Assembly (NCBI GenBank): GCA_031441465.1
Contig: JANOEP010000011.1
Span: 64,001 to 128,000, forward strand
Origin: a bacterium
GTDB lineage: Bacteria; Krumholzibacteriota; Krumholzibacteriia; LZORAL124-64-63
Direction: 5' to 3'
DNA: 64,000 bases
Shown here: piece after piece, positions 3,448 through 62,263 of the stretch
Numbering within the stretch: position 1 is the first letter of the stretch
Layout of the letters: every line of letters starts with the position of its first letter
The notes under the pieces: generated by a model
Told to the model about the DNA's origin: nothing
What the model saw: only the letters and a program-made list of their open reading frames with translations
Database searches by the model: none
Position numbers and translations under genes: made by a program

Positions 3448-3456
3448 CGCCGCCTC

Positions 3457-4332: not shown

Positions 4333-4368
4333 CCTCCGCGTTGGGGCCCCGGCGGGGCCTCGGTTGAG

Positions 4369-4399
4369 TGATGTAGAAATGATATCATAAAGAGATCAT
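4369..4399. promoter_or_regulatory. Putative RHH operator upstream of the SPFH operon
   Basis: ATGATATCAT palindrome (4379-4388) flanked by degenerate copies at 11-bp spacing. Confidence 0.45.
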
Positions 4400-4477
4400 A
4401 CGCGCAAACCGATTCCATGTTGCACCATCAAACGCCGGCCAGGTCGCAACCCCCGCCCCGAGTCAGGTACCGGTGTC

Positions 4478-4618
4478 CCGGATCTGCACATCCTGCGGTA
4501 TCGGGGGCGTCTGAAGGCCTCCGGCGCCAGGAGGGCGCCGGAGGCCGGAAGTCGAGCGGGCCGGGCACAGGATGTTCCCGGCCCGCGTCCCCCGCTACGG
4601 CAGGATGTGCAGATCTGG
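4478..4618. repeat. Structured intergenic element: ~30-bp imperfect terminal inverted repeat enclosing two hairpins
   Basis: Arms 4478-4507 and 4589-4618; inner hairpins 4516-4546 and 4556-4586. Confidence 0.65.
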
Positions 4619-4623
4619 AACTC

Positions 4624-5898
<1,275 letters not shown>

Positions 5899-5999: not shown

Positions 6000-7325
6000 T
6001 CAGAGAGCGATGATTTCTTGGATATCCGCCTGATCGCCTCCGAATACGATGCCGATCTCCCTCAGCAGGGGGAACGGCGGATCGCCGCCGGCGAAGATGA
6101 AGACGAAATCGTTCGGCAGGATGGCGGGACCGGTCGTCGTGGTCAGCGCCACGGTGTCGGCCTGGATCGCGGTCAGCTGCGAGTCGCCCAGGAAGCGCAC
6201 GGCTCCGGAGGCGATCAGGGCCTCGACCTTGTCCGCGTTGCGTTTCTTGATGCGCAGCAGACGGGGCTTGCGGTAGGAAAGCGTCACTTCGATGTCCGGC
6301 TGGCTGGCCAGGGCGACCGCGGCTTCGACGGCGCTGTCGCCCCCGCCGACGACCAGCACCCGGTTACCCCGGTACAGCGAGGCGTCGATGAGGCGGTAGG
6401 CCACCTTCGCGGCGTCTTCGCCGGCGATGCCGAGCTTGCGCGGCGTGCCACGGCGGCCCAGGGCGAGCACCACGTTCCGGGCGCGATGGTCGCCGGCCGT
6501 CGTGTGGACTTTCAGGTCGCCGTGGCTGCCCGTGATGCTCAGCAGGCGCTCGTCGGTGTGGATCTTCAGGTCGTGCTCCGTGTGCAGGCGCAGCCAGATA
6601 TCCAGCAGGTCCTCCTTGCTGTACTCCTTCTGCAGCAACGGGCCGTACAGGGGGATCACGACCGGCTGGACCAGCACCAGCTTGCGACGGGGGTATTGCA
6701 GGATGGTGCCGCCCGGTCCCTGTTGGTCCAGCACCAGGCAGCGCAGGCCGTGCTGGCGCGCCGTCAGCGCCGCGCTCAGGCCGCCGGGTCCCGCGCCCAC
6801 GACGATCGCGTCCCAGCACGCGTCGCCGGCAGGGAAGGGGCCGCGGGCGACGATCGCCTCCATGGCGCGGCGTCCCTGGTCCACGGCGTTGCTCACCAGA
6901 GCGAACCCGCCCAACTCGCCGGCGACGAAGATCCCCGGCCGGCTGGTCTCGAGTTCCGGGCTGAGCACGGGGATGTCGTCGCGGGTCGTGATGTCTCCCA
7001 GACCGACCTTCAGCGCGCCGACGGGGCAGGCTTCGGCGCAGCGGCCGTGGCCGATGCACCGGGCGCCGTTGGTGATCACGGCCTTGCCGCCGACGATGCC
7101 GAGCACGTCGCCTTCCGGGCAGGCCGCCACGCAGGAGCCGCAGCCGATGCAGGCGTTGGCGTCGATGAGCGGGTACTGGCCGACGGGCCGGTTCATGCCG
7201 AGCGCCACGGTCTCGTCCCGCCGGGCGGCGTCCCGGATCCGGGTGGCGCGGAAGCGCAGGAAGTAGGGAACGAACAGGCCGGCGCCCAGCAGGAGGGCAC
7301 AGCCCCAGATCAGCAACGATTCCAT
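6000..7325 (-). CDS. Membrane-anchored 2x[4Fe-4S] ferredoxin fused to a TrxB/YpdA-like FAD/NAD(P)H oxidoreductase
   Basis: Start MESLLIWGC with a TM helix; CIGCGSCVAACP and CIGHGRCAEACP; GAGPGG (FAD) and VGGGDSAVE (NAD(P)H). Confidence 0.85.
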   Translation of the reverse strand: MESLLIWGCALLLGAGLFVPYFLRFRATRIRDAARRDETVALGMNRPVGQYPLIDANACIGCGSCVAACPEGDVLGIVGGKAVITNGARCIGHGRCAEACPVGALKVGLGDITTRDDIPVLSPELETSRPGIFVAGELGGFALVSNAVDQGRRAMEAIVARGPFPAGDACWDAIVVGAGPGGLSAALTARQHGLRCLVLDQQGPGGTILQYPRRKLVLVQPVVIPLYGPLLQKEYSKEDLLDIWLRLHTEHDLKIHTDERLLSITGSHGDLKVHTTAGDHRARNVVLALGRRGTPRKLGIAGEDAAKVAYRLIDASLYRGNRVLVVGGGDSAVEAAVALASQPDIEVTLSYRKPRLLRIKKRNADKVEALIASGAVRFLGDSQLTAIQADTVALTTTTGPAILPNDFVFIFAGGDPPFPLLREIGIVFGGDQADIQEIIAL

Positions 7326-7342
7326 GTCCCCCCCATGCCGAT

Positions 7343-8965
7343 TCAGAAACGCAGCGAGAGATCGGCGCGCAGACGGTCGGCCTGGAGATCGTCGCCGCCG
7401 TCCCGCTCGTACTCCAGGCCCGCCAGCCAGGCCCGATTCAGGACCTTCCGCGCGCCGATCCTGGCCCAGTGCGAGTTGCGCGTCGCGGCGCCGGTGAGGT
7501 CGTAGTTGTAGAGCCCGGCCGCAAACTGCAGGTCCAGCCCGTCGCGCAGAGCATGATCCAGCCGCAGGGAAGGTGTCAATCCGGACACCCGCGGGCCGTC
7601 GAAGCCCCGCAGGTCCAGGGTCAGGTGGTTGCCGGCTCCCAGGATGCCGGCGCGTCCTACGCCGAAGCCCCAGCTCCAGGTGTCGCCGTCGCGGCCGGCG
7701 CCGCCGCGCACGCCGCCGTCGGCGCTCAACGACCAACCGGCGCCTCCGGTCCAGCGCGTCCGCAGTCGCAGGCCCATCCGCTCGGCGTCGCGGAAGAGGC
7801 TGTCGGGGAGCGAACGGTTCGTCCAAGTGCGGTACAGCTCGCGGCGGTCGTGACTCAGCGAGGCGCTCAGGTTCGGCGTGAATCGCGCGGAGAGGCTGGT
7901 GACCGAGTTGCTCAGGGCGAAGCGACGGCCTTCCGTCGCGTACCGCCAGCCCCGGTTGACTTCCAGTTCGGCGCTCTGGTGCAGGCGGAAGGCGCCCGTG
8001 CGGCCGAGGTCGCCGTCCAGCAGGAGGTACTCGCGGCTGGCTTCGCTGCCGTGGTACTCCCCGACCGCGGCCAGGACGAGATTCCAGGACCGGTCGGCGC
8101 CGTCGTCGTCGGTCCAGGCCAGGAAACCGCCACCCTTGCGCTCGTCGCTGCTCGGCTCGCTGGTGCGCGGGTCGGGCGTGAAGCCCGCGAAGGCGCCGAC
8201 CCGCGTGCCGGCGGCCAGGCGCCGGCTGGCCAGGACCCCGTCGAGCTGGCCGAAACCGCTGACGGCCCGGCTGGTGATCCTGCCCAGGCTGTAGTGCCAG
8301 TCGTCGGCTGGAAGCTCGTGCGAAAGGGTGAAGAGGTAGACGCGGTTGCGCCACTCGTTCTCGGCGGCGGACGAGTAGCCGGCGGCGCGGCGGTTCTGGC
8401 GCAGGGTGCCCCGCACCTGCAGTTCGTGGCCGCCGGCGAACGGTTCGCGAGACCGCAGGTCGAAGCGCAGCGCCGGCTGGGTCAAGTCGAGGTCGGCCTC
8501 GCTGCGGTCGTTGCTGTGCAGCCACTGCAGGGCGAGTCGGCCGCGCAGGAAGAAAGGCTGCCGCGGCGCCGTCGCCGCCGGTCGCGGCACGGGCGCGATC
8601 GACCCGGCGCCGGCGGCGGGCTCCGTGACGGCCTCGGTGTCGGCCGGCGCGGGCGCGGGGCCTTGCCGGATCACGGTGGCCGTGTCGCCGGGTTGGACGT
8701 CCGCCGGCGCACCCGTGATCCGGCAAGAGGCCGAATGCTCGGCCAGGTGCTCGAGCGTGATCTCGGTGACGGGCGCGTCGCGGCGCAGGATCTGCAACAC
8801 GTCGCCCGCGCGCAGGCCGTCGGCGCGGCCGGCGTCGAGGTAGACCTGATCGGCGGACACGTAGCTGACCTTGGCGCGCGGCAGGTCGTCCGCCCGCGCC
8901 GCCGGGGACGCGAGACCGAGGATCAAGATCCCGGCCAGCAACCAAGGGTGCTGTCGCTGTGTCAT
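7343..8965 (-). CDS. Putative outer-membrane beta-barrel protein
   Basis: Signal peptide (SPAARA), small N-terminal domain, Pro/Ala linker, then alternating amphipathic beta strands ending ADLSLRF (terminal Phe beta-signal). Confidence 0.75.
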   Translation of the reverse strand: MTQRQHPWLLAGILILGLASPAARADDLPRAKVSYVSADQVYLDAGRADGLRAGDVLQILRRDAPVTEITLEHLAEHSASCRITGAPADVQPGDTATVIRQGPAPAPADTEAVTEPAAGAGSIAPVPRPAATAPRQPFFLRGRLALQWLHSNDRSEADLDLTQPALRFDLRSREPFAGGHELQVRGTLRQNRRAAGYSSAAENEWRNRVYLFTLSHELPADDWHYSLGRITSRAVSGFGQLDGVLASRRLAAGTRVGAFAGFTPDPRTSEPSSDERKGGGFLAWTDDDGADRSWNLVLAAVGEYHGSEASREYLLLDGDLGRTGAFRLHQSAELEVNRGWRYATEGRRFALSNSVTSLSARFTPNLSASLSHDRRELYRTWTNRSLPDSLFRDAERMGLRLRTRWTGGAGWSLSADGGVRGGAGRDGDTWSWGFGVGRAGILGAGNHLTLDLRGFDGPRVSGLTPSLRLDHALRDGLDLQFAAGLYNYDLTGAATRNSHWARIGARKVLNRAWLAGLEYERDGGDDLQADRLRADLSLRF

Positions 8966-9990
8966 CAGTTACCTCGGGGGTGGCACTGGAAGCAGGCGGC
9001 GCTCTGGTAGGCGTAGCCGTTCTCGCCCTGGTGTCGCTGGTCCGTTTCCGTGCGGTTGTGCTCGTGGCAGAAGATGCACTCGAACACGGCATAGTTCGTC
9101 GGCGTCACGTGGCAGTCGACGCAGGCGTTCCACTCGTTGTTGTGCCGGCCCGAGTAGATCGGGAACAGCGTGTCGTGGTTCCAGTTCGACGGCTGCCAGA
9201 CCGAGGTCGTGTGGCAGGAGGCGCACTGGGTGTTGAAGCCGGCGGCGACGTGGCCGGGATCGTTGGCCGCCTCGTAGTCGGGGCGGTGGCAGGCGTAGCA
9301 GTCGGTCGGCGTGCCCGTGTAGCCCGCGGTGTGGCAGGAGGCGCAGGTCGCAGCGGCGTGGGCGCCGGTCAGCGGGAAGGCCGCCGAGTGGATGAAGGAG
9401 CCGGAGCCCCAATCGCTCGCCGTCATCCCGTGGCAGCTGGAGCAGTCCGTGCTGAAGCCGTTGGCCGCGTGGTCGGGATCGCGCGTCGCTTCGTAGTCGG
9501 TGTCGTGGCAACCGAGGCAGTCGGCGGCGATCGCGGTGTGCTCCTCGCCGGGCGATCCCTGGTGGCAGGCGTCGCAGTCCGCGACGGCGTGGGCGCCGAG
9601 CAGGGGGAAGCCGGTGGCGGGGTGGCGGTTGCGGCTCGCGTCGCGGACGTCCCAGCCGGAGGTGTCGTGGCAGTCTTCGCAGTTCGTGCCGAAGCGCCGG
9701 CGGTGCACGTCGAGGTGGCAGTCGGCGCAGGCCGACGCGACCCGGCGGAACTGCAGGTCCTGATGGCACCCGGAGCAGACGGCCTGGGCGTGCCGGCCGG
9801 TCAGGGCGTAGCCGGTCGTCGTGTGGTCGAACGAGGGCGGCGGCCAGGACACGTTCCACGACGAGGCGTCGTGACAGGCCTCGCAGCGCACGTCGATGTC
9901 CCCGTGGGGGCTGAGGTCCGGGGTCTGGGCTGGAGCCCGGACCGCGACGGACAGGAGGAACGACAACGGCAGCAGCCAGCGTCGGGTCAT
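8965..9990 (-). CDS. Multiheme c-type cytochrome, 13 CxxCH
   Basis: Start MTRRWLL with signal peptide; 13 CxxCH motifs counted; overlaps both neighbours (ATGA and TGATG). Confidence 0.92.
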   Translation of the reverse strand: MTRRWLLPLSFLLSVAVRAPAQTPDLSPHGDIDVRCEACHDASSWNVSWPPPSFDHTTTGYALTGRHAQAVCSGCHQDLQFRRVASACADCHLDVHRRRFGTNCEDCHDTSGWDVRDASRNRHPATGFPLLGAHAVADCDACHQGSPGEEHTAIAADCLGCHDTDYEATRDPDHAANGFSTDCSSCHGMTASDWGSGSFIHSAAFPLTGAHAAATCASCHTAGYTGTPTDCYACHRPDYEAANDPGHVAAGFNTQCASCHTTSVWQPSNWNHDTLFPIYSGRHNNEWNACVDCHVTPTNYAVFECIFCHEHNRTETDQRHQGENGYAYQSAACFQCHPRGN

Positions 9991-11714
9991 GGCCGGTCTC
10001 CCTTGGGTTTCGATTCGAGGAACCCCTGCGTGTGGCAGGCCTCGCAGCGCTTGTCGACCGGGCGGTACCGGACCAGGAAGTCGTCGGCGTCGCCCTCGCG
10101 GAGATGGCAGGCCTGGCAGGCCACGTGCTGATGGCCGCCGGCGAGCGGGAAGGTGGTGTCGCGATCGTGGACGAAGCGCTCCGCTTTCCAGCCGGCGGCG
10201 GTGGTGTGGCAGCGGGTGCAGTCGGTGGCGGGCGGGGTCGTCGCCGCGGCGAACTGGCCGCGGTGCGGATCCTGGTGGCACGCGTCGCAGCGTTCCGGGG
10301 TGGGGCTGAAGCGCAGGCTGTCCGAGGCGGCCCGCCGATCCGGCGCGGCCTGCCGATCCAGTGTGGCCTGCCGATCCTGTGGGGCGTGGCAGGCCCGGCA
10401 GGTGGTCGTCGCGTGCTTGCCCGAGAGCGGGAAGCGCGTGCGGCCGTGGTCGTAGGCCACCTGCCGCCACGAGGCGACGTCGTGGCAGAGCCGGCAACCC
10501 GCTTCGGCCTTCTGCGCCGTGCTCGTGCCGGCGTGGGGATCCCGGTGGCAGTCCGTGCACGCCGCCGCCGGCCGCTGCAGGGGCGTCGGCGCCCCCTGGC
10601 GCGGCGGCGCGTGGCAGGCGCTGCAGGCCACGGCGAGGTGGGCGCCCTGCAGGCCGAAACCGGTGGAGTCGTGGCGCGCGACCGTGAACGACGACGGTTT
10701 GAAGCCGTTCACGGTGTGGCAGCGGCTGCAGGCGTCGTAGGTGCGTCCCTCGGCGGCCTCCGGGTGGCGGTCTTGGTGGCAGCCGTCGCAGCGCGCGTAG
10801 ACCAGGGCGCCGCGGGGCGCGTCCGCGCGGTGGCAGGCGTCGCAGCGCAGGGCCGTGTGGCGCCCCCGCAACGGGTAGCGGGTGCGATCGTGGTCGAAGT
10901 CGCCGCCGGCGACCCGCCGCCAGTCCGCGGGATCGTGGCAGCGGGCGCAATCGGCGCCGAGGGAGCCGGCGTGGGGGTCCTTGTGGCAGGCCGCGCAGCT
11001 CGCGTGCTCGACGGGGCGGTAACGGTGCCAGGTGTCGGCAACGCCTTCGACGGTCTCGGTCGTCGCCCGGTGGCAGCGGTCGCAGGCCAGGTCGCGGTGT
11101 TTCCCTGCGAGGACGAAGTCGGCCTTGGCGTGGTCGAACCCGGGAGCGGGCTTCCAGGCGTCCGGCGTGTGGCAGGTCGTGCAGGCGCCTTCGAACTGGC
11201 CACGGTGTTCGTCGCGGTGGCAGTCCAGGCAACCGGCGCCGAGGCCCAGGTAGGTGCGGCCGGGGTTCTTGCCGCGGTCGCGGACGAGGGAGACGTCCTG
11301 GAGCAGATCCGCCCGGTGGCACTTCCGGCAGTCCAGCTTCCGGTGGGCTCCCGCCAGCGGCCACCCAGCCGCAGCGTGGTCGAAGGCGGCCGGGCCGGCC
11401 GGCCAGTGGATCAGGTCGAAGTCGCGACCCTGGTGCTCGACGTGGCAGGTTGTGCAGCGTTCGTGGCCGGCGGTGGCGTGGAGTCCGCGTCCCGCGGCCA
11501 CCCGCGTGGCGATCTCCTGGTGGCAGGCCAGGCACTTCGGGCCGACTTTCTGGTCGCCCAGCTCGTGGCAGGACGTGCACGCACGGACGCCCTCCAGGTG
11601 CTCGTGAACGCGGGAGAGCTTGCCGGGCGACAGCTGCGCCGCGGCGAGGACCGGGAATCCCGCAATCAGGACAATATTGATCGCAAAATGAGACACACGT
11701 CTCAGAACACCCAT
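9987..11714 (-). CDS. Multiheme c-type cytochrome, 20 CxxCH
   Basis: Signal peptide ...PVLAAA-QLSPG; 20 CxxCH motifs in repeated FDH-x4-(F/Y)PLxGxH-x3-CxxCH three-heme modules. Start codon approximate. Confidence 0.92.
   Translation of the reverse strand: MGVLRRVSHFAINIVLIAGFPVLAAAQLSPGKLSRVHEHLEGVRACTSCHELGDQKVGPKCLACHQEIATRVAAGRGLHATAGHERCTTCHVEHQGRDFDLIHWPAGPAAFDHAAAGWPLAGAHRKLDCRKCHRADLLQDVSLVRDRGKNPGRTYLGLGAGCLDCHRDEHRGQFEGACTTCHTPDAWKPAPGFDHAKADFVLAGKHRDLACDRCHRATTETVEGVADTWHRYRPVEHASCAACHKDPHAGSLGADCARCHDPADWRRVAGGDFDHDRTRYPLRGRHTALRCDACHRADAPRGALVYARCDGCHQDRHPEAAEGRTYDACSRCHTVNGFKPSSFTVARHDSTGFGLQGAHLAVACSACHAPPRQGAPTPLQRPAAACTDCHRDPHAGTSTAQKAEAGCRLCHDVASWRQVAYDHGRTRFPLSGKHATTTCRACHAPQDRQATLDRQAAPDRRAASDSLRFSPTPERCDACHQDPHRGQFAAATTPPATDCTRCHTTAAGWKAERFVHDRDTTFPLAGGHQHVACQACHLREGDADDFLVRYRPVDKRCEACHTQGFLESKPKGDRP
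10324..10377. repeat. 18-bp tandem repeat x3 inside the 20-heme cytochrome gene
   Basis: gaggcggcccgccgatcc / ggcgcggcctgccgatcc / agtgtggcctgccgatcc, encoding DRQATL-DRQAAP-DRRAAS. Confidence 0.8.
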
Positions 11715-12535
11715 CGGTACCCCAGGGCCACGGTTACGGCCACGTGGATCACCATGATGACCAACATGAGGTAAGCAAAGGGTTTGTGGATGACGTGCCA
11801 ATAGTGGAACAACTCCCGGATGCGGTTGTGGAACAGGATTCGACGACCGAGCAAGACCCGCGCCTTGGCGGCCGCCAGGACCGTCATGGAGGCCCCGGCC
11901 GGCAACTGCTTTCGTAACCGCATGCCCAGCAACATGTTGCTCAGAGGCAGGCGCCACAGGCTGCCGCTCGCCGTGGTGGCGGTCGCCAGGGTGGACATCG
12001 TGCGCGCGTCCAGCCCGTGAGCCTCGCGCAGCAGACGGTCGGCCTCCTCGAGCTGGAGCTGGATCTGTTCGATGGTCATGGCTTCGCCCAGCACGTTGCG
12101 CGGCAGTTGCAGGTACAGATACCGTCCGAACACGCCGCTGAGCGCCACGGCCATCATGGACCAGTAGCTCACTGCGACCAGGCCCTGGACCTTGAGCGAA
12201 GTGTGCAGCGTCACCAGCAGAGGTCCCGAGATTCCCAGGAAGATGTGCCCGTCGAGCCAGCGCGCGATGTGCCCTTTGCCGGCAAGCCCGTGCCAGCGCT
12301 TGCGCAGGGAGTAGAGCAGCAGCAGCAGGATCTGCAGGCTGCCGACGATGCCCAGGCCGTGGCCCACCGTGCCGGCCGGACGCAGGCTGCGGAAATCCGG
12401 GTGGTGGGGGCGCAGGTCCAACGGCAGGCTGTAGTAGTCGATTCCGACCACGAGCAGCCAGGTGATCGCGGCGGCGAGCAGGAGATAACTGAATCGCAGC
12501 ACGATGCGGAACCCGCGGGTGCTCCCGGCGGCCAT
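11702..12535 (-). CDS. Polytopic membrane protein, putative heme b-binding (ferric reductase/cytochrome b-like)
   Basis: About 5 TM helices with His residues in or near the membrane: WLDGHIFLG, VTLHTS, FHYWHVIHKP, MVIHVAV. Confidence 0.75.
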   Translation of the reverse strand: MAAGSTRGFRIVLRFSYLLLAAAITWLLVVGIDYYSLPLDLRPHHPDFRSLRPAGTVGHGLGIVGSLQILLLLLYSLRKRWHGLAGKGHIARWLDGHIFLGISGPLLVTLHTSLKVQGLVAVSYWSMMAVALSGVFGRYLYLQLPRNVLGEAMTIEQIQLQLEEADRLLREAHGLDARTMSTLATATTASGSLWRLPLSNMLLGMRLRKQLPAGASMTVLAAAKARVLLGRRILFHNRIRELFHYWHVIHKPFAYLMLVIMVIHVAVTVALGYRWVF

Positions 12536-12572
12536 GGCGTCTCCTTGTCGGTCAACGGATTCGGGCGGCATC

Positions 12573-12627
12573 ATTCTAGGCTCTCTTGCTTCCGATACAA
12601 CCAGTATGTCGTGTCGCAAATGGTTGT
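12573..12627 (-). promoter_or_regulatory. Putative sigma70 promoter of the cytochrome operon with overlapping inverted repeat
   Basis: Minus strand TTGTAT-N16-TAGAAT (12600-12573); ACAACCA-N17-TGGTTGT (12597-12627). Confidence 0.4.
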
Positions 12628-12726
12628 CCTGGAGCGGCGGAGGTGATAGTTTTCCCCACATGCCCGGTGCCCCGGCGGAGCGATCCCGGGGCGCCCCTTT
12701 TTCCGCGTGTGATGACGGAGGTGTCC

Positions 12727-37304: not shown

Positions 37305-39323
37305 ATGACACGCTCCACGCGATGCATCCGCCCGTTCACGGGTGTCGCCGGCTCGATCGCCCTGCTGGCCGTCTTGCTGACCTCCCTGCCGGCGCCCGCC
37401 GTCGCCGGCACCGTCGCGCCCGATCCGACCGCCCATCGGCGCCAGGAAGCAGCGACCAAGGCCCGTCTGGCCGCCGCCGCGACCCGCGCCGATGCGCAGA
37501 GGACCGCCGGTCAGGACCTGTACGATGTCCTGCACTACGACCTGGACCTGACGCTGGCGCCCGCGTCGCACCTGCTGACCGGGCAGGTCGCGACCACCGC
37601 CCGCATCGTGGGCTCGCCCCTTTCCACCCTGGACCTGGACCTGAAGTCGACGATGGTGGTGACCGCCGCGACGGCCGGCGGCGCGCCGACCACCTGGACC
37701 CGCATCGGCGACGTGCTGACCGTGGCGTTGGATCGTGCCTACGTCCCGGGCGAAGTCGTCACCGTGTCGGTCGCCTACCGGGGCAATCCCGCCGGCAGCT
37801 ACTTCGGCTGGAGCAGCGTGGGCGGCCAGCCCATGATCTGGACGCTGAGCGAGCCCTACGGTTCCCGGGACTGGTGGCCGTGCAAGGACCTGAACACCGA
37901 CAAGGCCGACTCGGTGGCCGTGCGCGTGACCGTGCCCGACGGGCTGATCGTGGCTTCCAACGGGCTGCTGGCATCGGAAGTCGACAACGGCGCGACCCGC
38001 ACCTTCCAGTGGCGCACCGGTTACCCCATCGTGCCTTACCTGGTCTCGCTGGCGATCTATCCCTACACGCGGTTCTCCCACTGGTACACGCCGCTGGCGG
38101 GCGGCGACCCCATGGAAGTGCAGTACTTCGTGTACCCGAGCCACTACGATGCGGTCCAGGCGAATTACGCCAAGACCGTGCCGATGATCACGGTCTTCGC
38201 CCAGGCGTTCGGGGAGTACCCCTTCGTGCAGGAAAAGTACGGGCACGCGGAATTCGTCTGGGGCGGCGGCATGGAGCACCAGACGCTCACCAGCCTCGGC
38301 GGCTACGGCGAGGACCTGATCTCCCACGAGCTGGCGCACCAGTGGTGGGGCGACATGATCACCTGCGCCGACTTCCAGCACATCTGGCTCAACGAAGGGT
38401 TCGCCACCTGGTGCGAGGCCTACTGGCGGGAACAGACGGCGGGCGTCGCCACCTACCGCGCCTACATGGACGCCGCCGCCTACATGGGCCCCGGCACCAT
38501 CTTCGTCGAGGACCCGAGCGACTTCTGGGGCATCTTCGACGGCAACCTGAGCTACAACAAGGGCTCGTGGGTCGTGCACATGCTGCGCGGGGTGCTCGGC
38601 GACGAGGACTTCTTCGCCGGCCTGGCGGCCTACCGCGACCAGTACGCCTACGGCAGCGCCACCACGGAACAATTCCGCGACGTCATGGAGCAGGTCTCGG
38701 GCCGCGACCTGGACGCGTTCTTCCAGCAGTGGATCTACGGGGAGTACTTCCCCTTCTATTACTACGACTGGGAGACGACCGCCCACGCGGACGGCCTCGT
38801 GCTGAACCTGGCCGTGACCCAGGCGCAGGCCAACACCGGTCTGTTCGCGATGCCGCTGCCGGTGCGCGTGACCACCACGGCCGGTGTCGTGGACACCGTC
38901 GTCTGGAACGACGCCGCGCTGCAGTCCTACCGGATCGCGGTGCCCGGCGCGGTGACCGGCATCGCTCTGGACCCCGACGGCTGGATCCTGTGCGAGAAGG
39001 CGGCTGTCCCGCTCATGGGGACCGCGGCGCCGCAGGTCCCGGTCCCTGGGACGCCCCGATTGACCTGCGCCCCGAACCCGTTCAATCCCGAGACCGAGGT
39101 CGTGGTCTCCACCGCGTCCGCGGGTCGCGTGGACCTCTCCGTGCACGACGCCGCCGGCCGCCTGGTCGGAGTGCTGTGCGCCGGCGACCTGCCCGCCGGC
39201 GAGCACCGCTTTCGTTGGCGGGGTCGCGACGAGGCGGGCCGCGCCGTCGCGTCCGGCGCCTATTACCTGCGCCTGCGCACGCCGGCGGGCGACGTGTTGC
39301 GGCCCGTGGCGTTGGTGCGTTGA
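37305..39323 (+). CDS. Secreted M1 aminopeptidase with FlgD-like C-terminal domain
   Basis: GGMEHQ, HELAHQWWG...WLNEG, YNKG; C-terminal PNPFNP...WRGRDEAG..VASGAY. Confidence 0.92.
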   Translation: MTRSTRCIRPFTGVAGSIALLAVLLTSLPAPAVAGTVAPDPTAHRRQEAATKARLAAAATRADAQRTAGQDLYDVLHYDLDLTLAPASHLLTGQVATTARIVGSPLSTLDLDLKSTMVVTAATAGGAPTTWTRIGDVLTVALDRAYVPGEVVTVSVAYRGNPAGSYFGWSSVGGQPMIWTLSEPYGSRDWWPCKDLNTDKADSVAVRVTVPDGLIVASNGLLASEVDNGATRTFQWRTGYPIVPYLVSLAIYPYTRFSHWYTPLAGGDPMEVQYFVYPSHYDAVQANYAKTVPMITVFAQAFGEYPFVQEKYGHAEFVWGGGMEHQTLTSLGGYGEDLISHELAHQWWGDMITCADFQHIWLNEGFATWCEAYWREQTAGVATYRAYMDAAAYMGPGTIFVEDPSDFWGIFDGNLSYNKGSWVVHMLRGVLGDEDFFAGLAAYRDQYAYGSATTEQFRDVMEQVSGRDLDAFFQQWIYGEYFPFYYYDWETTAHADGLVLNLAVTQAQANTGLFAMPLPVRVTTTAGVVDTVVWNDAALQSYRIAVPGAVTGIALDPDGWILCEKAAVPLMGTAAPQVPVPGTPRLTCAPNPFNPETEVVVSTASAGRVDLSVHDAAGRLVGVLCAGDLPAGEHRFRWRGRDEAGRAVASGAYYLRLRTPAGDVLRPVALVR

Positions 39324-45341: not shown

Positions 45342-45436
45342 TCGCCGGGTATGATCTGATTCCCGCTCCCTGCCGGTTTATGGTACTGGAGAGAGTCTGC
45401 CAAGGTGGCGGCGAACATCGTAAAAGGGATGATGTG

Positions 45437-45712
45437 ATGAGCGAGCCTAGGAACTGCTGGGACGTGATGAAATGTGGCCGTTCGCCCGGCGGCGTCAACG
45501 TCGTATCCAGCGGGATCTGCCCTGCGGCGGTCGACCGGTCGAGCCACGGCATCAACCGGGGACAGAACGCCGGCCGGTACTGCTGGCGGATCGCGGGGAC
45601 TTACTGCCGCGGGCAACGTCAGGGGACCTTCGCCCAGAAGGCGGAGGACTGCGGCAAGTGTTTCTTCTTCCAGCTGGTCAGGTACGAGGAGGCCGAGGCG
45701 CTGACCCTCTAG
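45437..45712 (+). CDS. Small Cys-rich protein with two CW motifs
   Basis: NCWDVMKCGR...CPA...AGRYCWRIAGTYC...CGKCFF. Confidence 0.8.
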   Translation: MSEPRNCWDVMKCGRSPGGVNVVSSGICPAAVDRSSHGINRGQNAGRYCWRIAGTYCRGQRQGTFAQKAEDCGKCFFFQLVRYEEAEALTL

Positions 45713-45721
45713 CGGCTGGCG

Positions 45722-47059
45722 CTAGTCCACGATTCCGATCTCGAAGACCCGCGGCCAATCCTTCCCCGTCACGAAGACCCGCCCGCTCGCCGGATCGACG
45801 GCGATCCCGTTGAGCACGTCCGCCGCGAGGTCCTGCTCGCGCGTCAGCAGCCCGGTCAGGTCGAGCCAGTCCACGACCGCGCCGGTGGCGGGATCGATCC
45901 TTACGATGAAGTCGGTGAGCCAGACGTTGGCCCACACCAGCCCGCCGGCGCATTCCAGCTCGTTGAGCCGCTCCAGCTCGGCGCCGCCCGTGGTGACGGT
46001 CACGCGGCCCAGCTCGGCGAAGGTGCCGGGGTCGCGGAAGAACAGCGTCGAGGTGCCGTCGCTCATGACCAGCCGCGCGCCGTCCCAGGCCAGGCCCCAG
46101 CCCTCGGTCGCGTAGTCGAAGGTGTCCAGGGGGGCGAAGGTCGTCAGGTCGCGCGCGTAGGCGCGGTGGTTCTGCCAGGTCAGCTGCAGGACGCGGTCAT
46201 CGACGACCGCCACGCCCTCGCCGAATTCGTTGGCCGCCAGCGCGACCGACTGCAGCACCGTCCCGGTCGCGAGTTCCACCCGCCGCAGCTCCGAATCGCC
46301 GTAGTGGCCCGTGCCCTCGACCAGCGCGCCGCGGTCCCAGACGAGTCCCTGGGTGAAGGCGCCCGGATCGTGGGGGAACGACGCCACGACGCGCACGCCG
46401 CGGGCCGGTTCGGCCGCGACGAAGGAGCGCAGCGTGATCGTGCGCGCGCCGCCGGTGTCCGGCGTGACGACCAGGGCGCAGTAGTGGACGCCGGGCGCGA
46501 GGCCCGCGCGGTCGGCCGTCACCCAGACCGTGTCGGCTTCGGCCGCGGCGGATCCCGCGGCGGGCGCGGCCGAAGCCCAGGTCGAGCCGACGGTCACCGC
46601 CGCCGTCCAACCCAGTGCGCCGCCGCCGCCGTTGCGGATCACGACCGCCAGCCGCGAGCCGACCAGGCCGAAGCTGACCTGCGGCGTCTCGATCGCCGGC
46701 GACGGAGCGGCCACGTTTAGTGGCAGCCTGCCCGTGACCGCGTCGCGCCCGTCGTCCACGCTCACCGAGACGGTGCACGGCCCGGCCTGCGCCGGCGCGA
46801 TCCAGGCGACGGCGGCCGCGGCGGCCCCTTCGGGGAACACGCCACGGGTCGCGCTCCAGGCGTAGGACAGGGGCTGGCCCTCGGGATCCCCCGCCTGCAC
46901 CGACACGGTCAGCGTGTCGCCGGGGCTGGCCGTCGTCGACGGCGCGGCAGTCAGCGCCGCGATCGCCGGCGGTCGGTTCGCGGGATCGGCATCCAGGATG
47001 CAGCCGGCGACCGCCAGAGCCGCGGCGAGCAGGCAGAAGGTCAACGGTCGGGTTCTCAT
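45722..47059 (-). CDS. Lipoprotein glutaminyl-peptide cyclotransferase with N-terminal Ig-like domains
   Basis: Lipobox VAGC; PHDPGAFTQGL, FGEG, EGWGL, LNELE, VLNGIA, TGKDWP. Confidence 0.9.
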   Translation of the reverse strand: MRTRPLTFCLLAAALAVAGCILDADPANRPPAIAALTAAPSTTASPGDTLTVSVQAGDPEGQPLSYAWSATRGVFPEGAAAAAVAWIAPAQAGPCTVSVSVDDGRDAVTGRLPLNVAAPSPAIETPQVSFGLVGSRLAVVIRNGGGGALGWTAAVTVGSTWASAAPAAGSAAAEADTVWVTADRAGLAPGVHYCALVVTPDTGGARTITLRSFVAAEPARGVRVVASFPHDPGAFTQGLVWDRGALVEGTGHYGDSELRRVELATGTVLQSVALAANEFGEGVAVVDDRVLQLTWQNHRAYARDLTTFAPLDTFDYATEGWGLAWDGARLVMSDGTSTLFFRDPGTFAELGRVTVTTGGAELERLNELECAGGLVWANVWLTDFIVRIDPATGAVVDWLDLTGLLTREQDLAADVLNGIAVDPASGRVFVTGKDWPRVFEIGIVD

Positions 47060-47165
47060 CACTCTCCTCGGAGTTGCCCTCATTGTAGGGGGGATCGGCG
47101 CGGCGGACAACCGTCTGGCCCGCGGCCGGTCCCGAGGTTATGATGGCTCCCGAACAGGAGCGTAC

Positions 47166-47252: not shown

Positions 47253-47331
47253 GCCAAGCCGCAGCACCGCCGCATCACGCCACGCCGCCGGCGCCCCGCC
47301 GGCGGCCGGACCCTGTGCGAAGGAGGATGTT

Positions 47332-47697
47332 GTGAACGACCGCAAGGATCTGATCCGCGCCTACAAGGAGACCGTGCAGCCCGCCGGGATCTACGTCGTG
47401 CGCAATATCATCGAGGGCAAGCTGCTGCTGGGCGCCAGCCGCAACCTGCCGGCCAGCCTCAACGGCCAGCGCGCTCAGCTGCGCTTCGGCGGCCACCGTA
47501 GCCGCGCCCTGCAGTCCGACTGGAACCGCCTCGGCGAGGACGCCTTCGTCATCGAGGTGTACGAGGAACTGAAGCCGTCCGAGGGCAACCGCGAGGTGCT
47601 CCAGGCGGACCTCGAAGCCCTGCTTGCCCTGCTGATCGCCGATCTGCGCCCCTGGGACGAGCATGGCTACCATCCACCGCCGCGAGAGGGGAAGTGA
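47332..47697 (+). CDS. Small GIY-YIG superfamily protein
   Basis: YKE...GIYVVRN, LQSDWNRLGEDAF; AAGGAGG RBS. Confidence 0.8.
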   Translation: MNDRKDLIRAYKETVQPAGIYVVRNIIEGKLLLGASRNLPASLNGQRAQLRFGGHRSRALQSDWNRLGEDAFVIEVYEELKPSEGNREVLQADLEALLALLIADLRPWDEHGYHPPPREGK

Positions 47698-47829
47698 AGG
47701 CACCGGCCTTGCAATTGACCACGACCGTCGCAACTGCTTGATTTTTCAATAGCTTGTACAATTCGCCATGATGGGGGGATGCGCGCCGGCTTATTGCACA
47801 TTTGTCAATTATCTTGATACTACAGATTC

Positions 47830-47867
47830 ATTGTGATATAGTCACAATACTGTCAACATACCGACAG
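47830..47867. promoter_or_regulatory. Palindromic operator candidates upstream of the OmcS-like gene
   Basis: ATTGTGA-N5-TCACAAT (47830-47848) and CTGTC-N8-GACAG (47850-47867) in an AT-rich stretch. Confidence 0.5.
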
Positions 47868-47942
47868 AACTGTTTGTCGCTCTGCATGTTCGGCCCAAAA
47901 CGCATGATTCCCGAACACCGCATTCCAACACGGGGGATTTAG

Positions 47943-49061
47943 ATGCGGACTTTTCAACAGGCCATGATCGTCGTCGCCTCGCTGACGTTGGGATGGGCGC
48001 CGGTCCAGGCCTTCCACGATGGCGGCGTCGCTTACTGCGCAGGCTGCCACACCATGCATGTGAGCCAGAACGGCGGCCCCGGCTACCACGGGACACCGGG
48101 CGGCAACCCTGATCTGCTGATGTACGGGAACGCCACCGACACGTGTGTGCGTTGTCACTATTTCCGCGGTCAGATCTCGAACGGCCAAGGCCAGGGGCCG
48201 GGTGGGGATTTCTACTGGCTGACGCGCACGTTCACCTGGACCACGCCGGGGGGAACGACGGGGAGCAGTCCCGGCCACACGCACGGACACAACGTGGCCT
48301 GCAACGTGTTCAACATTCCTGCCGATCCGGTTCTCCAGCAGGCGCCCGGCGGGGAATTCCTCAGCAACGAACTCGGCTGCACCAGCTGCCACGATCCCCA
48401 TGGCAACAGGAATTTCCGCATGCTCTACGATTCGCAGCTCGGCCCCAGGTACGTAGGTGATACGCGATTCGCGTTCACGGCCGACGCACCGCTGGCCCGC
48501 GGCAATGCCGGCACCACGCTGGTCGGCGGCGGCGCCAACGAAACCGACGCCCGGCATACCGTCTACAAGAGCGGTTTCAGCGAGTGGTGCGCCAACTGCC
48601 ATCCGTCGATGTTCGAAACAGCCGGCGGGCAGTACATGCATCCCGCCGGCGTCGGGCTCACGCCCACGATCGCTGACCGTTACAACGGATACGTGAGCAC
48701 CGATGATCCGGATGGCGGCATCCAGGCCGCATCCTACATGGGCCTGGTGCCTTTCGAAGCGGTCGATGTCGATCTGTCCTCGGTCGATCCCGCGAACTCG
48801 ACGTCAGGTCCCGCGGCCGGCGACCAGGTGATGTGCCTGTCCTGCCACCGCGCCCACGCGTCGCCGTTCGCCGACGCCGGGCGCTGGGATTTCGCCGCCA
48901 CGTTCCTGGTTGCGGATTCGCATCCCCGGATAGGTGACGGCGGCGCCTCTGCACAGGACATCGCCAACCGCTATTACGGGTACACCTTCACGCCCAACCA
49001 GCGCTCGTTGTGCAACAAGTGCCACGTCAAGGACTTCGGAGACGCGCCGTACACTCCCTGA
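47943..49061 (+). CDS. OmcS-family hexaheme c-type cytochrome
   Basis: Mature start FHDGGVAYCAGCHTMH; PGGDFYW; GHNV; CTSCHDPHG; SEWCANCH; HPAG; CLSCHRAHAS; QRSLCNKCHVKD. Six CxxCH, collinear with Geobacter OmcS as recalled. Confidence 0.88.
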   Translation: MRTFQQAMIVVASLTLGWAPVQAFHDGGVAYCAGCHTMHVSQNGGPGYHGTPGGNPDLLMYGNATDTCVRCHYFRGQISNGQGQGPGGDFYWLTRTFTWTTPGGTTGSSPGHTHGHNVACNVFNIPADPVLQQAPGGEFLSNELGCTSCHDPHGNRNFRMLYDSQLGPRYVGDTRFAFTADAPLARGNAGTTLVGGGANETDARHTVYKSGFSEWCANCHPSMFETAGGQYMHPAGVGLTPTIADRYNGYVSTDDPDGGIQAASYMGLVPFEAVDVDLSSVDPANSTSGPAAGDQVMCLSCHRAHASPFADAGRWDFAATFLVADSHPRIGDGGASAQDIANRYYGYTFTPNQRSLCNKCHVKDFGDAPYTP

Positions 49062-49072
49062 GTTGTGCGGAG

Positions 49073-49104
49073 GCGGCCGGGAGCCCCATCCGGCTTCCGG
49101 CCGC
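49073..49104. terminator. Hairpin between convergent genes
   Basis: GCGGCCGGGAGCC...GGCTTCCGGCCGC. Confidence 0.5.
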
Positions 49105-49135
49105 TGTCCCGATCGGCAAGTGTGGCCAAGTCCTC

Positions 49136-51268
<2,133 letters not shown>

Positions 51269-51393
51269 GGGGCGGACCTCTCGTTTCGGGTCGGGGTGTG
51301 CGGCGCGGGGTCGGGCCATGATAGGACGGCGCGGCGCCCCTGTCATCCCTCAACGGGCTTCCCAGCCGACCCGGCCGCTGCTACGATACGGGC

Positions 51394-53222: not shown

Positions 53223-54010
53223 CCGCCGCGGCCGTCGCGATCGTGCTGCTGCTGCTGGCCGGCTGGGCCGCGGCCCGCGCCCTGCGCGCCGCCGGCGAAT
53301 GGCGCACGGCACCGCGCGGCCGGCGTCCCTTCGCCGCGACGGGCGCGCATTACCGCCGTTGCTACGACCGGCGCGGGTTCCTGATCCTGGGCGGGGTGGC
53401 GCTGGCCGCCTTCATCATGGCGCACACGGGGATCGACGAGGCGATCGACCGGGCCCACGCGCGCCGCGTCCGCGGCCCGCGCAGCGACGCGGCCGTCGGC
53501 ATCCTGCGCGGGTTCGGCCGGCGGCCGTGGTTCCTGGTCTGGGGGGCTTTCGGGCTGCTCGACGGCTTGGTCGCGACGACACCGCTGCTGCGCTGGGGCC
53601 GGCGCAACTTCGAGGCCATGGTCGTCGGCCTGCCCGCGCTCTGGTCGCTGCAGTTCGCGGGCGGCGCCTCGCGCCCCACCGACCCGCCAGGCGATGCGCA
53701 CTGGCGTCCCTTCCGCGACGACAACACCGCGTCGGGCGACACCTTCGTGGCCGCCGTGCCCTGGCTCAACGCCGGCCGCACCGTCGACGAACCCTGGTTG
53801 CGACGGCTGGCTTGGCTGCTGAGCTGGGGGCCGGGCTGGGGGCGGCTCAACGACCGCAAACATTACGCGAGCCAGGTGATGTTCGGCCACGAGATCGCCG
53901 CGCAGGCGGTCAGGTCGGTCGCCGCCACCGACACCGCCGCCGCCGATTACCGCACGAGCGTCATCCGCCCGCCGCCGCTGCCGCTGCGAGATTCCACGCG
54001 ATACAGGTAA
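53219..54010 (+). CDS. PAP2-like membrane protein
   Basis: RP...SGDT...R..DRKHYASQV pattern with TM helices. 3' end overlaps the convergent gene. Confidence 0.55.
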   Translation: MTAAAVAIVLLLLAGWAAARALRAAGEWRTAPRGRRPFAATGAHYRRCYDRRGFLILGGVALAAFIMAHTGIDEAIDRAHARRVRGPRSDAAVGILRGFGRRPWFLVWGAFGLLDGLVATTPLLRWGRRNFEAMVVGLPALWSLQFAGGASRPTDPPGDAHWRPFRDDNTASGDTFVAAVPWLNAGRTVDEPWLRRLAWLLSWGPGWGRLNDRKHYASQVMFGHEIAAQAVRSVAATDTAAADYRTSVIRPPPLPLRDSTRYR

Positions 54011-55173
54011 ACACCCGAGGGCAGCGCCGCACCCGCGGCGTCCCGCCCCTCCCAGAGCACGGTCTGCGCACCGGTCGGGGCATTCCAGTCGCGCGACCAG
54101 ATCGCGCGGCCGGCGAGGTCGTGCACGGTCAGGCGCACCGCTCCGGGCTCTGCGACCGCGAAGCGGATGGTGGTCGCCGGATTGAACGGGTTCGGGTAGT
54201 TGTCGACCGCCAGCAGCAGGGGCGCGTCGGGCACGGGGGTGCCCTGCTCGTCCATGTCCCAGATCGTGCCGTTGACGGTGTAGGTGACGAAGCCCGTCGT
54301 CGCGACGACGATGTGGCCGTTGGCGATCGTGCGCATGCCGGCGGGGTAGGTGGAGGTGGAGCCTTGGGCGGTCTGGTAGACGTAGGCGCCGGCGGCGGAC
54401 AGGCGATTCAGCGCGTCCTGGCTCGGGTGGCCGTAGCTGCTGCTGGTCGGCACCGAGATGATCGCGACCTCGGGCGTCGTCGAATTCAGGAAAGAGGTGT
54501 TGCTGCTGGTGAACGAACCGTGGTGGTTGACGTGGAGGACCTCGATGTCGCCGGCCTCGAGGCCGACCGACGTCTCGACGTCCTGCTCGCTGCTGTAGCC
54601 GCCGGTCAGATCGCCCGCGACCAGGAAATCGAAATCCCCGCTCTGGATCAGCAGGGCCATGCAGTAGGCGTTTTCCTGGGTCGAACTGGTGAAGGGCGAC
54701 GGCAGCGTGCCGTTGCCGTTCAACGCGATGACCGTGGCGGTCACGCCGTCGCCCAGGTCGATCACTTGGCCGTCGACCGCGGTGTGCCGCTTGGCGGCCA
54801 CCGCGTTGGCGTACGAGGTGTAGGTGGCGGTGGTGTAGGTCCAGCCCCGGTCGTAGACCGCCTGGGCGACGCCGACCGCGTTGTAGACCTCGTCGAGGCC
54901 GCCGATGTGGTCCTCGTGGTAGTGGCTGGCGGCCATGTAGTCGAGGGTCGTGATGCCGTGGCTCTGCAGGTAGGGGACGATCACGCTGTTGCCATCGCCG
55001 TTCTCGCCGCCGTCGAACAGCAGGGTCTTGCCGCTGGAGGAGACGATGAGCGTGGCGTCGGCCTGCCCGACGAAGAGGCAGTGGATCGTCACCCCGGCCA
55101 AGGCCGGCAAGGCGGATAGGCTCACAAGCAGGGCGGTCACCCAAACCCGCGTCCGGATGCTCTGGGAGGTCAT
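53947..55173 (-). CDS. Secreted ComEC/Rec2-type metallo-beta-lactamase fold hydrolase with FlgD-like domain
   Basis: VGQADA, SHYHEDHIGG, AGD, HHGS, YGHP; C-terminal NYPNPFNP...SGVYLY. Confidence 0.88.
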   Translation of the reverse strand: MTSQSIRTRVWVTALLVSLSALPALAGVTIHCLFVGQADATLIVSSSGKTLLFDGGENGDGNSVIVPYLQSHGITTLDYMAASHYHEDHIGGLDEVYNAVGVAQAVYDRGWTYTTATYTSYANAVAAKRHTAVDGQVIDLGDGVTATVIALNGNGTLPSPFTSSTQENAYCMALLIQSGDFDFLVAGDLTGGYSSEQDVETSVGLEAGDIEVLHVNHHGSFTSSNTSFLNSTTPEVAIISVPTSSSYGHPSQDALNRLSAAGAYVYQTAQGSTSTYPAGMRTIANGHIVVATTGFVTYTVNGTIWDMDEQGTPVPDAPLLLAVDNYPNPFNPATTIRFAVAEPGAVRLTVHDLAGRAIWSRDWNAPTGAQTVLWEGRDAAGAALPSGVYLYRVESRSGSGGGRMTLVR

Positions 55174-60874: not shown

Positions 60875-62263
60875 ATGCGCCGCGCCCTCACCCTCGCCGT
60901 CCTGCCCCTGGTCTGCGCCCTGGCCGCGCCCGCCGCCGCCTGGGACGAGTTCATCGTGCTGACCACCGACTTCGCGACCTTCGGCGGCGTCACGCGCGTG
61001 GACCGCGACGCCCCGTGGTCGGCCGAGGTCGACGCGGCGACCATCTCGTCCGACGCCGTGGGCCGCTGGCACGACGGCCGCTACTTCGTCGTCAACCGCA
61101 GCGCGTCCAACATCCAGGTCCTCGACCCCGCGCAGGGCATGGCCACCGTCCTGCAGTTCAGTGTCGGGGTCGGCCGCAATCCCCAGGACATCGCATTTTC
61201 GCCGGACGGACGCGCCTTCGTCTCCTGCTACGACGAGGCCCTGCTGCTGGAAGTGGACCCCGTCGTCGGCGGCGTGGTCGGGTCGTGGTCGACCGCCGGC
61301 TTCGCCGACGCCGACGGCCTGCCCGAGACCGGTTGGATGCTGGCGGTGGGCGATCGCCTGTTCATCGCCTGCCAGCGCCTGGACCGCGACCACTGGTGGG
61401 GTCCGGTGGGACCGGGGCGGCTGCTCGTCTTCGACATGGCGACCGCCTCGTGGGACGCCCCCGTCGTGCTGACGGGAGCCAACCCGTCGCCGCCGCCGTC
61501 GCTGTCGTACGACGGCACGCACCTGCTGGTGCCGACGGTGGGTTGGTACGGCCTGCTGGACGCCGGCCTCGAGACTGTCGACCTGGCGATCCTCGGCAGC
61601 AGCGGCCTGCTGGTCACCGAGCAGAGCCTCGGCGGCGAGATCGTCGACGCCGTCTCGACCGGACCGGGGCGCGCCTGGGCGATCGTGGGCGACACGTCCT
61701 TCCACACGAAATTGAAGACCTTCGATCCCGACGGCGGCGGCACGCCCGTGACTGTTGCATCCTCGAACGGCTACGACTTCGCGGACCTCGCCTGGGACGG
61801 CGCGGACCTGATCTACCTCTGCGACCGCACGACCGGGGCCGCCGGCCTGCGCGTCTTCGACCAGTCGTCGGGCGCCGAGCTGACCACGAGCCGGATCGCC
61901 ACCGGCCGGCCGCCATTCCAGGCCGTCCTGCCCCTGGAGGCCGGCTCGACCGCGGCTCCCGTCCTGCCTCTGGCCGGCGGAGCCGTGCTGGGCGCGCCCT
62001 GGCCGAACCCGGCCAACCCGCGCACCACCTTCGTCGCCGAGACCGCCCCCGGCGATGTTGTCGCCTTCGCGGTGCTGGACCTGCGCGGCCGGCGCCTGCG
62101 CGGGGAGCGCCGTACGGCCGGCGCCAACGGCCGCGCCGTCTGGGAATTCGACGGCTGCGACCGCGACGGGCGGCCCCTGCCCTCGGGCGTCTACCAAGCA
62201 TCCGCGACCGGCGCGAGCAGCCCGGGCGTCGGCGACGCGCGCCTGTTCACCCTGGCGCGCTGA
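60875..62263 (+). CDS. Secreted beta-propeller (BtuG/YncE-like) with FlgD-like C-terminal domain
   Basis: Signal peptide; blade repeats (FVVNR..SNIQVLD, NPQDIAF, LFIACQRLD); PWPNPANP...DGRPLPSGVY. Confidence 0.7.
   Translation: MRRALTLAVLPLVCALAAPAAAWDEFIVLTTDFATFGGVTRVDRDAPWSAEVDAATISSDAVGRWHDGRYFVVNRSASNIQVLDPAQGMATVLQFSVGVGRNPQDIAFSPDGRAFVSCYDEALLLEVDPVVGGVVGSWSTAGFADADGLPETGWMLAVGDRLFIACQRLDRDHWWGPVGPGRLLVFDMATASWDAPVVLTGANPSPPPSLSYDGTHLLVPTVGWYGLLDAGLETVDLAILGSSGLLVTEQSLGGEIVDAVSTGPGRAWAIVGDTSFHTKLKTFDPDGGGTPVTVASSNGYDFADLAWDGADLIYLCDRTTGAAGLRVFDQSSGAELTTSRIATGRPPFQAVLPLEAGSTAAPVLPLAGGAVLGAPWPNPANPRTTFVAETAPGDVVAFAVLDLRGRRLRGERRTAGANGRAVWEFDGCDRDGRPLPSGVYQASATGASSPGVGDARLFTLAR

Follow-up and report, generated by a model that had tools for sequence, protein, structure and literature searches.

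An orphan OmcS-family hexaheme cytochrome gene in a Krumholzibacteriota genome that encodes a second, cluster-linked copy

The stretch of DNA analysed here (the window) comprises 64,000 nucleotides of contig JANOEP010000011.1 in assembly GCA_031441465.1, and carries on its forward strand an intact open reading frame (ORF) at 47943..49061, whose translation gives a protein of 372 amino acids (aa) with six CxxCH motifs (Table 1). This gene encodes a true OmcS-family hexaheme cytochrome, with the full ligand set and the fold of OmcS from Geobacter sulfurreducens (GSU2504, 6EF8/6NEF). An original prediction, made from the letters alone, had named a signal peptide, six CxxCH motifs and a series of stretches collinear with OmcS, and all of them are present in the translation: FHDGGVAYCAGCHTMH, PGGDFYW, GHN, CTSCHDPHG, SEWCANCH, HPAG, PFE, CLSCHRAHAS and QRSLCNKCHVKD each align with the matching OmcS residues in phmmer. 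When all PDB sequences were searched with the same program, OmcS (6ef8/6nef) was the only match at E<=1 (E 5.5e-46); the alignment pairs query residues 24-364 with residues 1-407 of the OmcS chain in two stretches, up to the C-terminal CNKCH.KD, and the mature N-terminus reproduces the OmcS pattern FH.GGVA.C.GCHTMH. This resemblance is far beyond chance, and together with the fold and the conserved heme ligands it confirms the assignment as an OmcS-type cytochrome. Scans of Pfam and NCBIfam, libraries that hold no OmcS-specific model, returned generic multiheme domains alone (Paired_CXXCH_1). The signal peptide has no lipobox cysteine; the leader is probably cleaved before Phe24 and the protein exported by the Sec pathway.

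Outside the six motifs, histidines 25, 39, 116, 153, 233 and 305 all align to OmcS histidines in phmmer, and with the six motif histidines they provide 12 axial ligands for 6 hemes. Among 101 aligned hexaheme homologs, drawn from the genomes of relatives and from public genome contigs, the six CxxCH motifs and His25, 116, 153, 233 and 305 are invariant, while His39 occurs in all 42 rows of the compact clade, to which the window protein belongs, and in 92% of the 59 rows of a second, long clade. On this pattern, all six hemes of the window protein would be bis-His ligated. The structure of OmcS was reportedly described by Wang et al. in 2019. We take the histidine that ligates in trans to be His16 in CHTMH, acting on heme 5 of the neighbouring subunit, and by alignment to OmcS motif 5 of the window protein is presumably the interfacial heme site. 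That one heme of OmcS is ligated by a histidine of the adjacent subunit is stated in two papers (PMC9473688, PMC12954529). His39 aligns to the TMH histidine of OmcS, and the prediction that the inter-subunit histidine of CHTMH is conserved here was thus correct. A further histidine, His205 (codon 48555-48557), is present in 42 of 42 compact-clade homologs and in 10% of the 59 long-clade (Geobacter/Nitrospirota-type) homologs; the OmcS residue at this position is arginine, and this clade-specific histidine is surplus to the twelve that six bis-His hemes require.

An AlphaFold2 (AF2) model of the window protein, built from 116 diverse homologs, has a predicted local distance difference test (pLDDT) of 91.2 and a predicted template-modelling score (pTM) of 0.87. 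A Foldseek search of the PDB returned 6ef8_A as the sole significant match (E 7.6e-23, TM 0.76), the next match having an E of 2.3. Superposition with VIA-align placed model residues 24-364 on residues 1-407 of the OmcS filament-subunit chain, with a Z of 33.6, a root mean square deviation of 2.3 A over 326 residues and 39% identity. The AF2 weights presumably predate the 2019 release of 6EF8, in which case the model carries no memory of that entry. Prediction of a complex of two mature copies with 4 hemes scored 0.00 in both runs, which were made without controls, and this score is evidence neither way.

Table 1. Positions of the features discussed in the text. Positions are those of the window unless a contig of the host genome (C19) is named.
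Feature	Position	Strand	Basis or remark
Signal peptide, residues 1-23 (MRTFQQAMIVVASLTLGWAPVQA)	47943..48011	+	Hydrophobic leader ending VQA; F24 corresponds to OmcS mature residue 1 (6ef8_A)
Mature hexaheme cytochrome (349 aa) and stop codon, OmcS family, compact clade	48012..49061	+	phmmer, AF2, VIA-align, dN/dS
Heme motif 1, CAGCH, residues 32-36	48036..48050	+	Kept in 101/101 family members
His39 codon, counterpart of OmcS CHTMH histidine	48057..48059	+	Alignment to OmcS
Heme motif 2, CVRCH, residues 68-72	48144..48158	+	Translation, family alignment
Heme motif 3, CTSCH, residues 146-150, then DPH (His153)	48378..48392	+	Translation, OmcS alignment
Heme motif 4, CANCH, residues 216-220	48588..48602	+	Translation, family alignment
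Heme motif 5, CLSCH, residues 298-302, then RAH (His305)	48834..48848	+	Translation, OmcS alignment
Heme motif 6, CNKCH, residues 357-361	49011..49025	+	Translation, family alignment
Sigma-70-like promoter: TTGATA, 17-nt spacer, TATAGT, TG before -10	47814..47842	+	Consensus match
Inverted repeat ATTGTGA-N5-TCACAAT, 7-bp arms, overlaps -10	47830..47848		Sequence
GGGGGA purine run, like a ribosome-binding site, 5 nt upstream of ATG	47932..47937	+	Sequence
Variable segment (promoter region and gene), ~1.4 kb	47698..49135		Present in G000 (host) and G003
110-aa Cys-rich protein	45380-45712	+	
Glutaminyl cyclase	45722-47110	-	
121-aa protein	47332-47697	+	
Prolyl oligopeptidase	49136-51346	-	
319-aa membrane protein	in 6000-12661	-	No family match
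575-aa cytochrome	in 6000-12661	-	20 CxxCH
341-aa cytochrome	in 6000-12661	-	13 CxxCH
540-aa secreted protein ending in Phe, candidate outer-membrane barrel	in 6000-12661	-	No family match
441-aa 4Fe-4S and FAD oxidoreductase	in 6000-12661	-	
NHL-repeat propeller protein, adjoins C19 OmcS-like gene	C19 11068-12066		Pfam NHL; tblastn 1e-11 from Geomonas 325-aa protein
Giant multiheme cytochrome, 1033 aa, 42 CxxCH	C19 12281-15382		tblastn 4e-124 from Geomonas 26-heme protein
Peptidyl-prolyl isomerase (PPIase)-domain protein	C19 15375-16691		Rotamase_2 3.4e-12; tblastn 3e-9 from Geobacter 590-aa protein

The 245-bp intergenic region upstream of the gene is AT-rich. Its sigma-70-like promoter matches the consensus hexamers at 10 of 12 positions, and two such sites occur in 47300-49400, where shuffled sequences predict 0.3. 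The promoter forms a block with the overlapping palindrome, and this block is conserved at the orthologous locus of G003, another genome of the same genus, in which the remaining spacer is not. The core of the palindrome, TTGTGA-N5-TCACAA, has a single occurrence in the 3.49-Mb host genome, so that no regulon can be inferred from it; the inverted repeat may be an operator, possibly for a dedicated regulator. A CRP-type TGTGA-N6-TCACA site was considered for it and rejected, because N5 separates the two half-sites and a search of the window for the N6 pattern gave nothing.

G003 has the same gene arrangement as the window locus and is the only one of the six other genus genomes with a window-type copy. 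In G001, G002, G004 and G005, the flanking genes (matching query positions 969-1963 and 3421-5624) lie 88-184 bp apart, and a GC-rich hairpin spacer of that length replaces the segment between them; in G006 the flanking genes are on different contigs. Along the oligopeptidase flank, the host (G000) stands at about 94% identity to the others (93.5% to G003), while G003 stands at 97% to G001 and G004, both of which are without the gene. Gene presence does not follow the similarity of this flank, since G003 is closer to these gene-less genomes than to the host, and this speaks against simple vertical inheritance within the genus. Repeated loss and recombinational transfer of the segment are both possible.

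Where present, the gene is under purifying selection: the ratio of non-synonymous to synonymous substitution rates (dN/dS) between the window gene and its G003 ortholog is 0.25 at a dS of 0.49. This ratio bears on the view that the gene is a redundant duplicate heading for loss, with no function of its own. The empty site in four genus genomes would fit such a fate, as would a GC content at third codon positions (GC3) below the genome norm, but the intact frame, the full set of 12 heme ligands and 12 heme cysteines, the constraint measured over that dS, the conserved promoter and palindrome block and the retention of a window-type paralog (64-72% identity) in 6 of 8 sampled sister-genus genomes all speak against it, and we regard it as very improbable.

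The host genome encodes a second OmcS-like protein, of 373 aa and 59% identical to the window protein, on contig C19 (9768-10889). Copies of this type are found in all six other genomes of the genus (best matches 59-60%), with a dN/dS of 0.27 at a dS of 0.14-0.20 against G001 and G002, and the mature N-terminal 16 residues are identical in the two paralogs of the host. The C19 gene belongs to an osc-like cluster (C19:9768-20107, locus L010) in which it is followed, going upstream, by genes for the NHL protein, the cytochrome with 42 CxxCH motifs, the PPIase-domain protein, an LpoB-like lipoprotein and a large protein without a family match; the same cluster recurs in a related uncultured-bacterium record (L014). 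The osc (omcS-companion) cluster of G. sulfurreducens, GSU2504-GSU2493, is reportedly the subject of work by Shen et al. in 2025, summarised in PMC13194489 and PMC12977616. Since G. sulfurreducens was not among the 73 loci kept in our survey of relatives, the osc-block queries were proteins from the blocks that follow the OmcS-like genes of Geomonas silvestris, Geobacter sp. AOG1 and Geobacter sp. H2geo. Every query with a match in the host genome had its best tblastn match in the C19 cluster, including the Geobacter/Geomonas 203-aa lipoprotein (8e-25) and 775-aa protein (5e-8), two of the channel-like components of the block. In Geobacter these components are three or four proteins encoded between the propeller and the PPIase, and they probably correspond to OscE, OscF and OscG. 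Judged by these matches, the C19 locus is a cluster homologous to the Geobacter omcS-companion genes. It shares with the Geobacter/Geomonas block an NHL propeller, a PPIase-domain protein, a giant cytochrome, the 203-aa lipoprotein and the 775-aa protein beside an OmcS-like gene, but its order is permuted, with the OmcS-like and NHL genes last and not first, its multiheme cytochrome has 42 CxxCH motifs where that of the block has 26, two members of the block were not found, and the window gene lies outside it.

No osc-like gene adjoins the window gene; the osc-like cluster lies in trans on C19, beside the paralog. The window copy is a stand-alone, accessory orphan paralog, a point that the original prediction had missed. 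The cytochrome c assembly and OmcS biogenesis genes that it had proposed to look for do exist in the host, though beside the C19 copy: downstream on that contig lie a HemN-like and an amine-oxidase-type gene (a heme-biosynthesis pair) as well as a gene for cytochrome c assembly (C19:3768-4361), and assembly genes of the PF01578 family occur on both C35 and C19. The neighbourhood downstream of OmcS-like genes is presented as a nanowire maturation and secretion block in a 2026 mBio paper (PMC12977616). For Krumholzibacteriota, neither orphan OmcS paralogs nor osc-like clusters turned up as described in the literature searched.

OmcS-family proteins are numerous and widespread. A word-index search gave 5195 proteins at E<=1e-5 among 8000 candidates, and an exhaustive search of 50%-identity representatives gave 696 clusters at E<=1e-3 and 113 at E<=1e-30. 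Within one-genome-per-species contigs, at least 149 pattern-matched stretches proved to be relatives, and the titles of the 73 loci kept include Krumholzibacteriia, Eisenbacteria, Gemmatimonadota, Fibrobacteria, Ignavibacteria, Calditrichaeota, Acidobacteriota, Nitrospirota, Alphaproteobacteria, Desulfuromonadales, Geobacter/Geomonas, Anaeromyxobacteraceae and others. When the host phylum was sampled evenly, a match at E<=1e-20 was seen in 54 of 201 genomes (39 of 125 high-quality ones), concentrated in the host's family (44 of 86 genomes); at the same threshold, no match was seen in five other families searched within the phylum. An OmcS was moreover reported in 2021 by Dalcin Martins et al. 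(PMC7914226) in a Krumholzibacteria metagenome-assembled genome (MAG) recovered from a Bothnian Sea bioreactor, which the available portion of that paper describes as the first identification in Krumholzibacteria, made by a match to a FeGenie marker hidden Markov model (HMM). It is the same kind of gene in the same phylum, compared here by description only, and in that portion it figures as an HMM marker match, without structure, ligand, paralog or cluster analysis. The occurrence of such a gene outside Geobacter, for which the locus had been singled out, is therefore neither rare nor new, and the window gene is a further member of a known, widespread family in a phylum from which that family had already been reported.

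A quick IQ-TREE phylogeny of the 101 sequences, from which own-genome duplicate loci had been excluded along with proteins that carry under six CxxCH motifs or fall outside a length of 340-500 aa, splits into two clades with 99% support in the Shimodaira-Hasegawa-like approximate likelihood ratio test (SH-aLRT). The compact clade holds FCB-group (Fibrobacterota-Chlorobiota-Bacteroidota) phyla, Acidobacteriota and a few others, and the long clade Thermodesulfobacteriota, Nitrospirota and others. A length of 372 aa is typical of the compact clade and hence normal, so that the protein is indeed compact, as had been noted, without being unusual. The window protein falls in a subclade of five rows (99%) with G003 (own genus, 82% identity), G007 (sister genus) and two uncultured-bacterium records, and this subclade is sister to the clade with the C19 copy of the host. 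OmcS-family genes often stand in tandem, as at L012, L014, L016 and L074: the last of these, from a Nitrospirota MAG, has at least five full copies and fragments within 10 kb, two of them nearly identical, and L012 has two adjoining window-like genes whose products share 72% and 69% identity with the window protein.

The host genome (3.49 Mb, 74 contigs, 96.8% complete) encodes an RpoB that shares 86% identity with a 'Candidatus Krumholzibacteria' record and 78% with several Krumholzibacteriia records, one record at 78% being titled Gemmatimonadales. The nearest named relatives of the window cytochrome are from Krumholzibacteriia and Eisenbacteria MAGs. FlgD_ig-type C-terminal domains, which are type IX secretion-style sorting tails typical of secreted proteins of the FCB group, occur at 37305-39323, 53947-55173 and 60875-62263, their carriers being an M1 peptidase, a metallo-beta-lactamase-fold protein and a protein without an assigned family, all three secreted. 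Because of the RpoB identities, the relatives of the cytochrome and these domains, the host is placed by its sequences in Krumholzibacteriota, within the FCB group and not in Desulfuromonadia, which bears out the FCB-like, non-Geobacter host that had been foreseen. The stretch is present in two freshwater-sediment metagenome DNA runs of one study, which may be its source; no RNA run was among the sequencing runs found to contain it.

The window protein resembles OmcS in its fold, the order of its CxxCH motifs, its six distal histidines and its mature N-terminus. It differs from OmcS in being 58 residues shorter in mature form (349 against 407), in belonging to a separate clade (99% SH-aLRT), in its extra, clade-invariant His205 and in the lack of adjoining companion genes. 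It is almost certainly an extracytoplasmic electron carrier of the OmcS family. The account that we favour for its function, and towards which we lean on balance, is the following. The protein would be a Sec-exported, compact-clade hexaheme c-type cytochrome whose six hemes are attached in the periplasm by the cytochrome c assembly proteins of the host. It would then polymerise head to tail, with the His39 of each subunit completing heme 5 of the following one, as in OmcS, and assembly and export would run through the osc-like machinery encoded in trans on C19. As such, it would conduct electrons outside the cytoplasm of the freshwater-sediment Krumholzibacterium during metal or mineral respiration, or in the reverse process. 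For filament formation by itself, which the original prediction had proposed, the sequence evidence leaves the chances about even.

Several observations weigh against this account. None of the neighbours of the window gene is electron-transfer-related or osc-like, and the surroundings are of a housekeeping kind; the gene is dispensable, since at least four of the six other genus genomes are without it at the site; and its GC3 is 0.81, against 0.89-0.96 for its neighbours and 0.95 for the C19 copy. Two further channel-like proteins of the osc block, of 472/514 and 370/390 aa, have no tblastn match in the host genome at E<=1e-3, C19 ending at 20125, just past the cluster. The counterpart of the trans-ligating histidine is necessary for an OmcS-type filament but, being nearly family-invariant, does not discriminate wire-formers from other members. 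According to PMC12977616, OmcS is the only one of the G. sulfurreducens OmcS paralogs known to form a wire, and sequence methods could not separate wire-formers from other paralogs.

These points lend substance to a second view, in which the window protein is a non-polymerising paralog, that is, a monomeric or dimeric hexaheme carrier, either soluble in the periplasm or attached to the surface, that completes heme 5 in another way, like the uncharacterised OmcT, OmcJ and GSU2501 of G. sulfurreducens. A gene that stands alone, away from the osc-like cluster, and is accessory within its genus would suit such a role, and omcJ (GSU0701) likewise lies apart from the omcS operon, away from the cluster-linked copy in the same genome (PMC12977616). 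The likeness to OmcJ is an analogy of arrangement, as the OmcJ sequence was not in the comparison, and the duplications are independent, the window copy grouping with Krumholzibacteria paralogs and not with Geobacter. On the other side, every ligand is kept, including the counterpart of the trans-ligating histidine; the modelled subunit overlays OmcS in its filament conformation across residues 1 to 407; the N-terminal arm of the mature protein is shared without change with the cluster-linked C19 paralog; and no feature was identified from which heme 5 could draw a different sixth ligand, His205 being one unexplained candidate. We hold this view to be a serious, if minority, possibility.

The identical N-terminal arms leave open a mixed or alternative use of the two paralogs as subunits. 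The window gene could then be an interchangeable, strain-variable nanowire subunit, with the one osc-like machine on C19 polymerising either paralog or mixing both, which we consider unlikely. If true, a subunit gene would be gained, lost or exchanged between lineages under its own repressor-controlled promoter, tuning the surface or redox properties of the wire in a manner that resembles alternative pilins or flagellins, and the OmcS-type wires of sediment bacteria in the FCB group would be a modular trait that varies within populations.

Should compact members of the OmcS family polymerise, as in the favoured account, cytochrome wires would be common in uncultured sediment phyla and not a Geobacter speciality, with a bearing on iron and carbon cycling. 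The locus adds little to that general point, which the literature has already made; what it brings beyond this is the orphan position, the presence/absence polymorphism within a genus and the private promoter. A cluster-linked and an orphan copy in one genome, with sister genomes that are without the orphan, form a natural contrast that can be used to address both what makes a wire-former and whether a subunit can be handled in trans.

Elsewhere in the window, five genes form a contiguous run on the minus strand at 6000-12661 (Table 1). Several frames are open there at 70% GC and ORF lists made with genetic code table 11 mislead, and the frames were assigned by third-position GC. The original prediction had joined a porin-multiheme operon in this region with the window cytochrome into a full extracellular electron transfer pathway. 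The multiheme operon stood up; the porin remains a lead only, a protein-atlas search with the 540-aa protein having given unnamed clusters, with an outer-membrane protein barrel as the nearest named one (score 0.87); and nothing found here links the operon functionally to the window gene, from which it lies 36 kb away.

Close to the window gene, the 121-aa protein has a GIY-type N-terminal motif and a sub-threshold match to a group I intron endonuclease (E 2e-4), and it adjoins the insertion site in all genus genomes, with or without the cytochrome gene. The 110-aa Cys-rich protein, encoded between the phosphoenolpyruvate carboxykinase and glutaminyl cyclase genes, matches the NCBIfam model two_CW_domain at an E of 2.3e-29.

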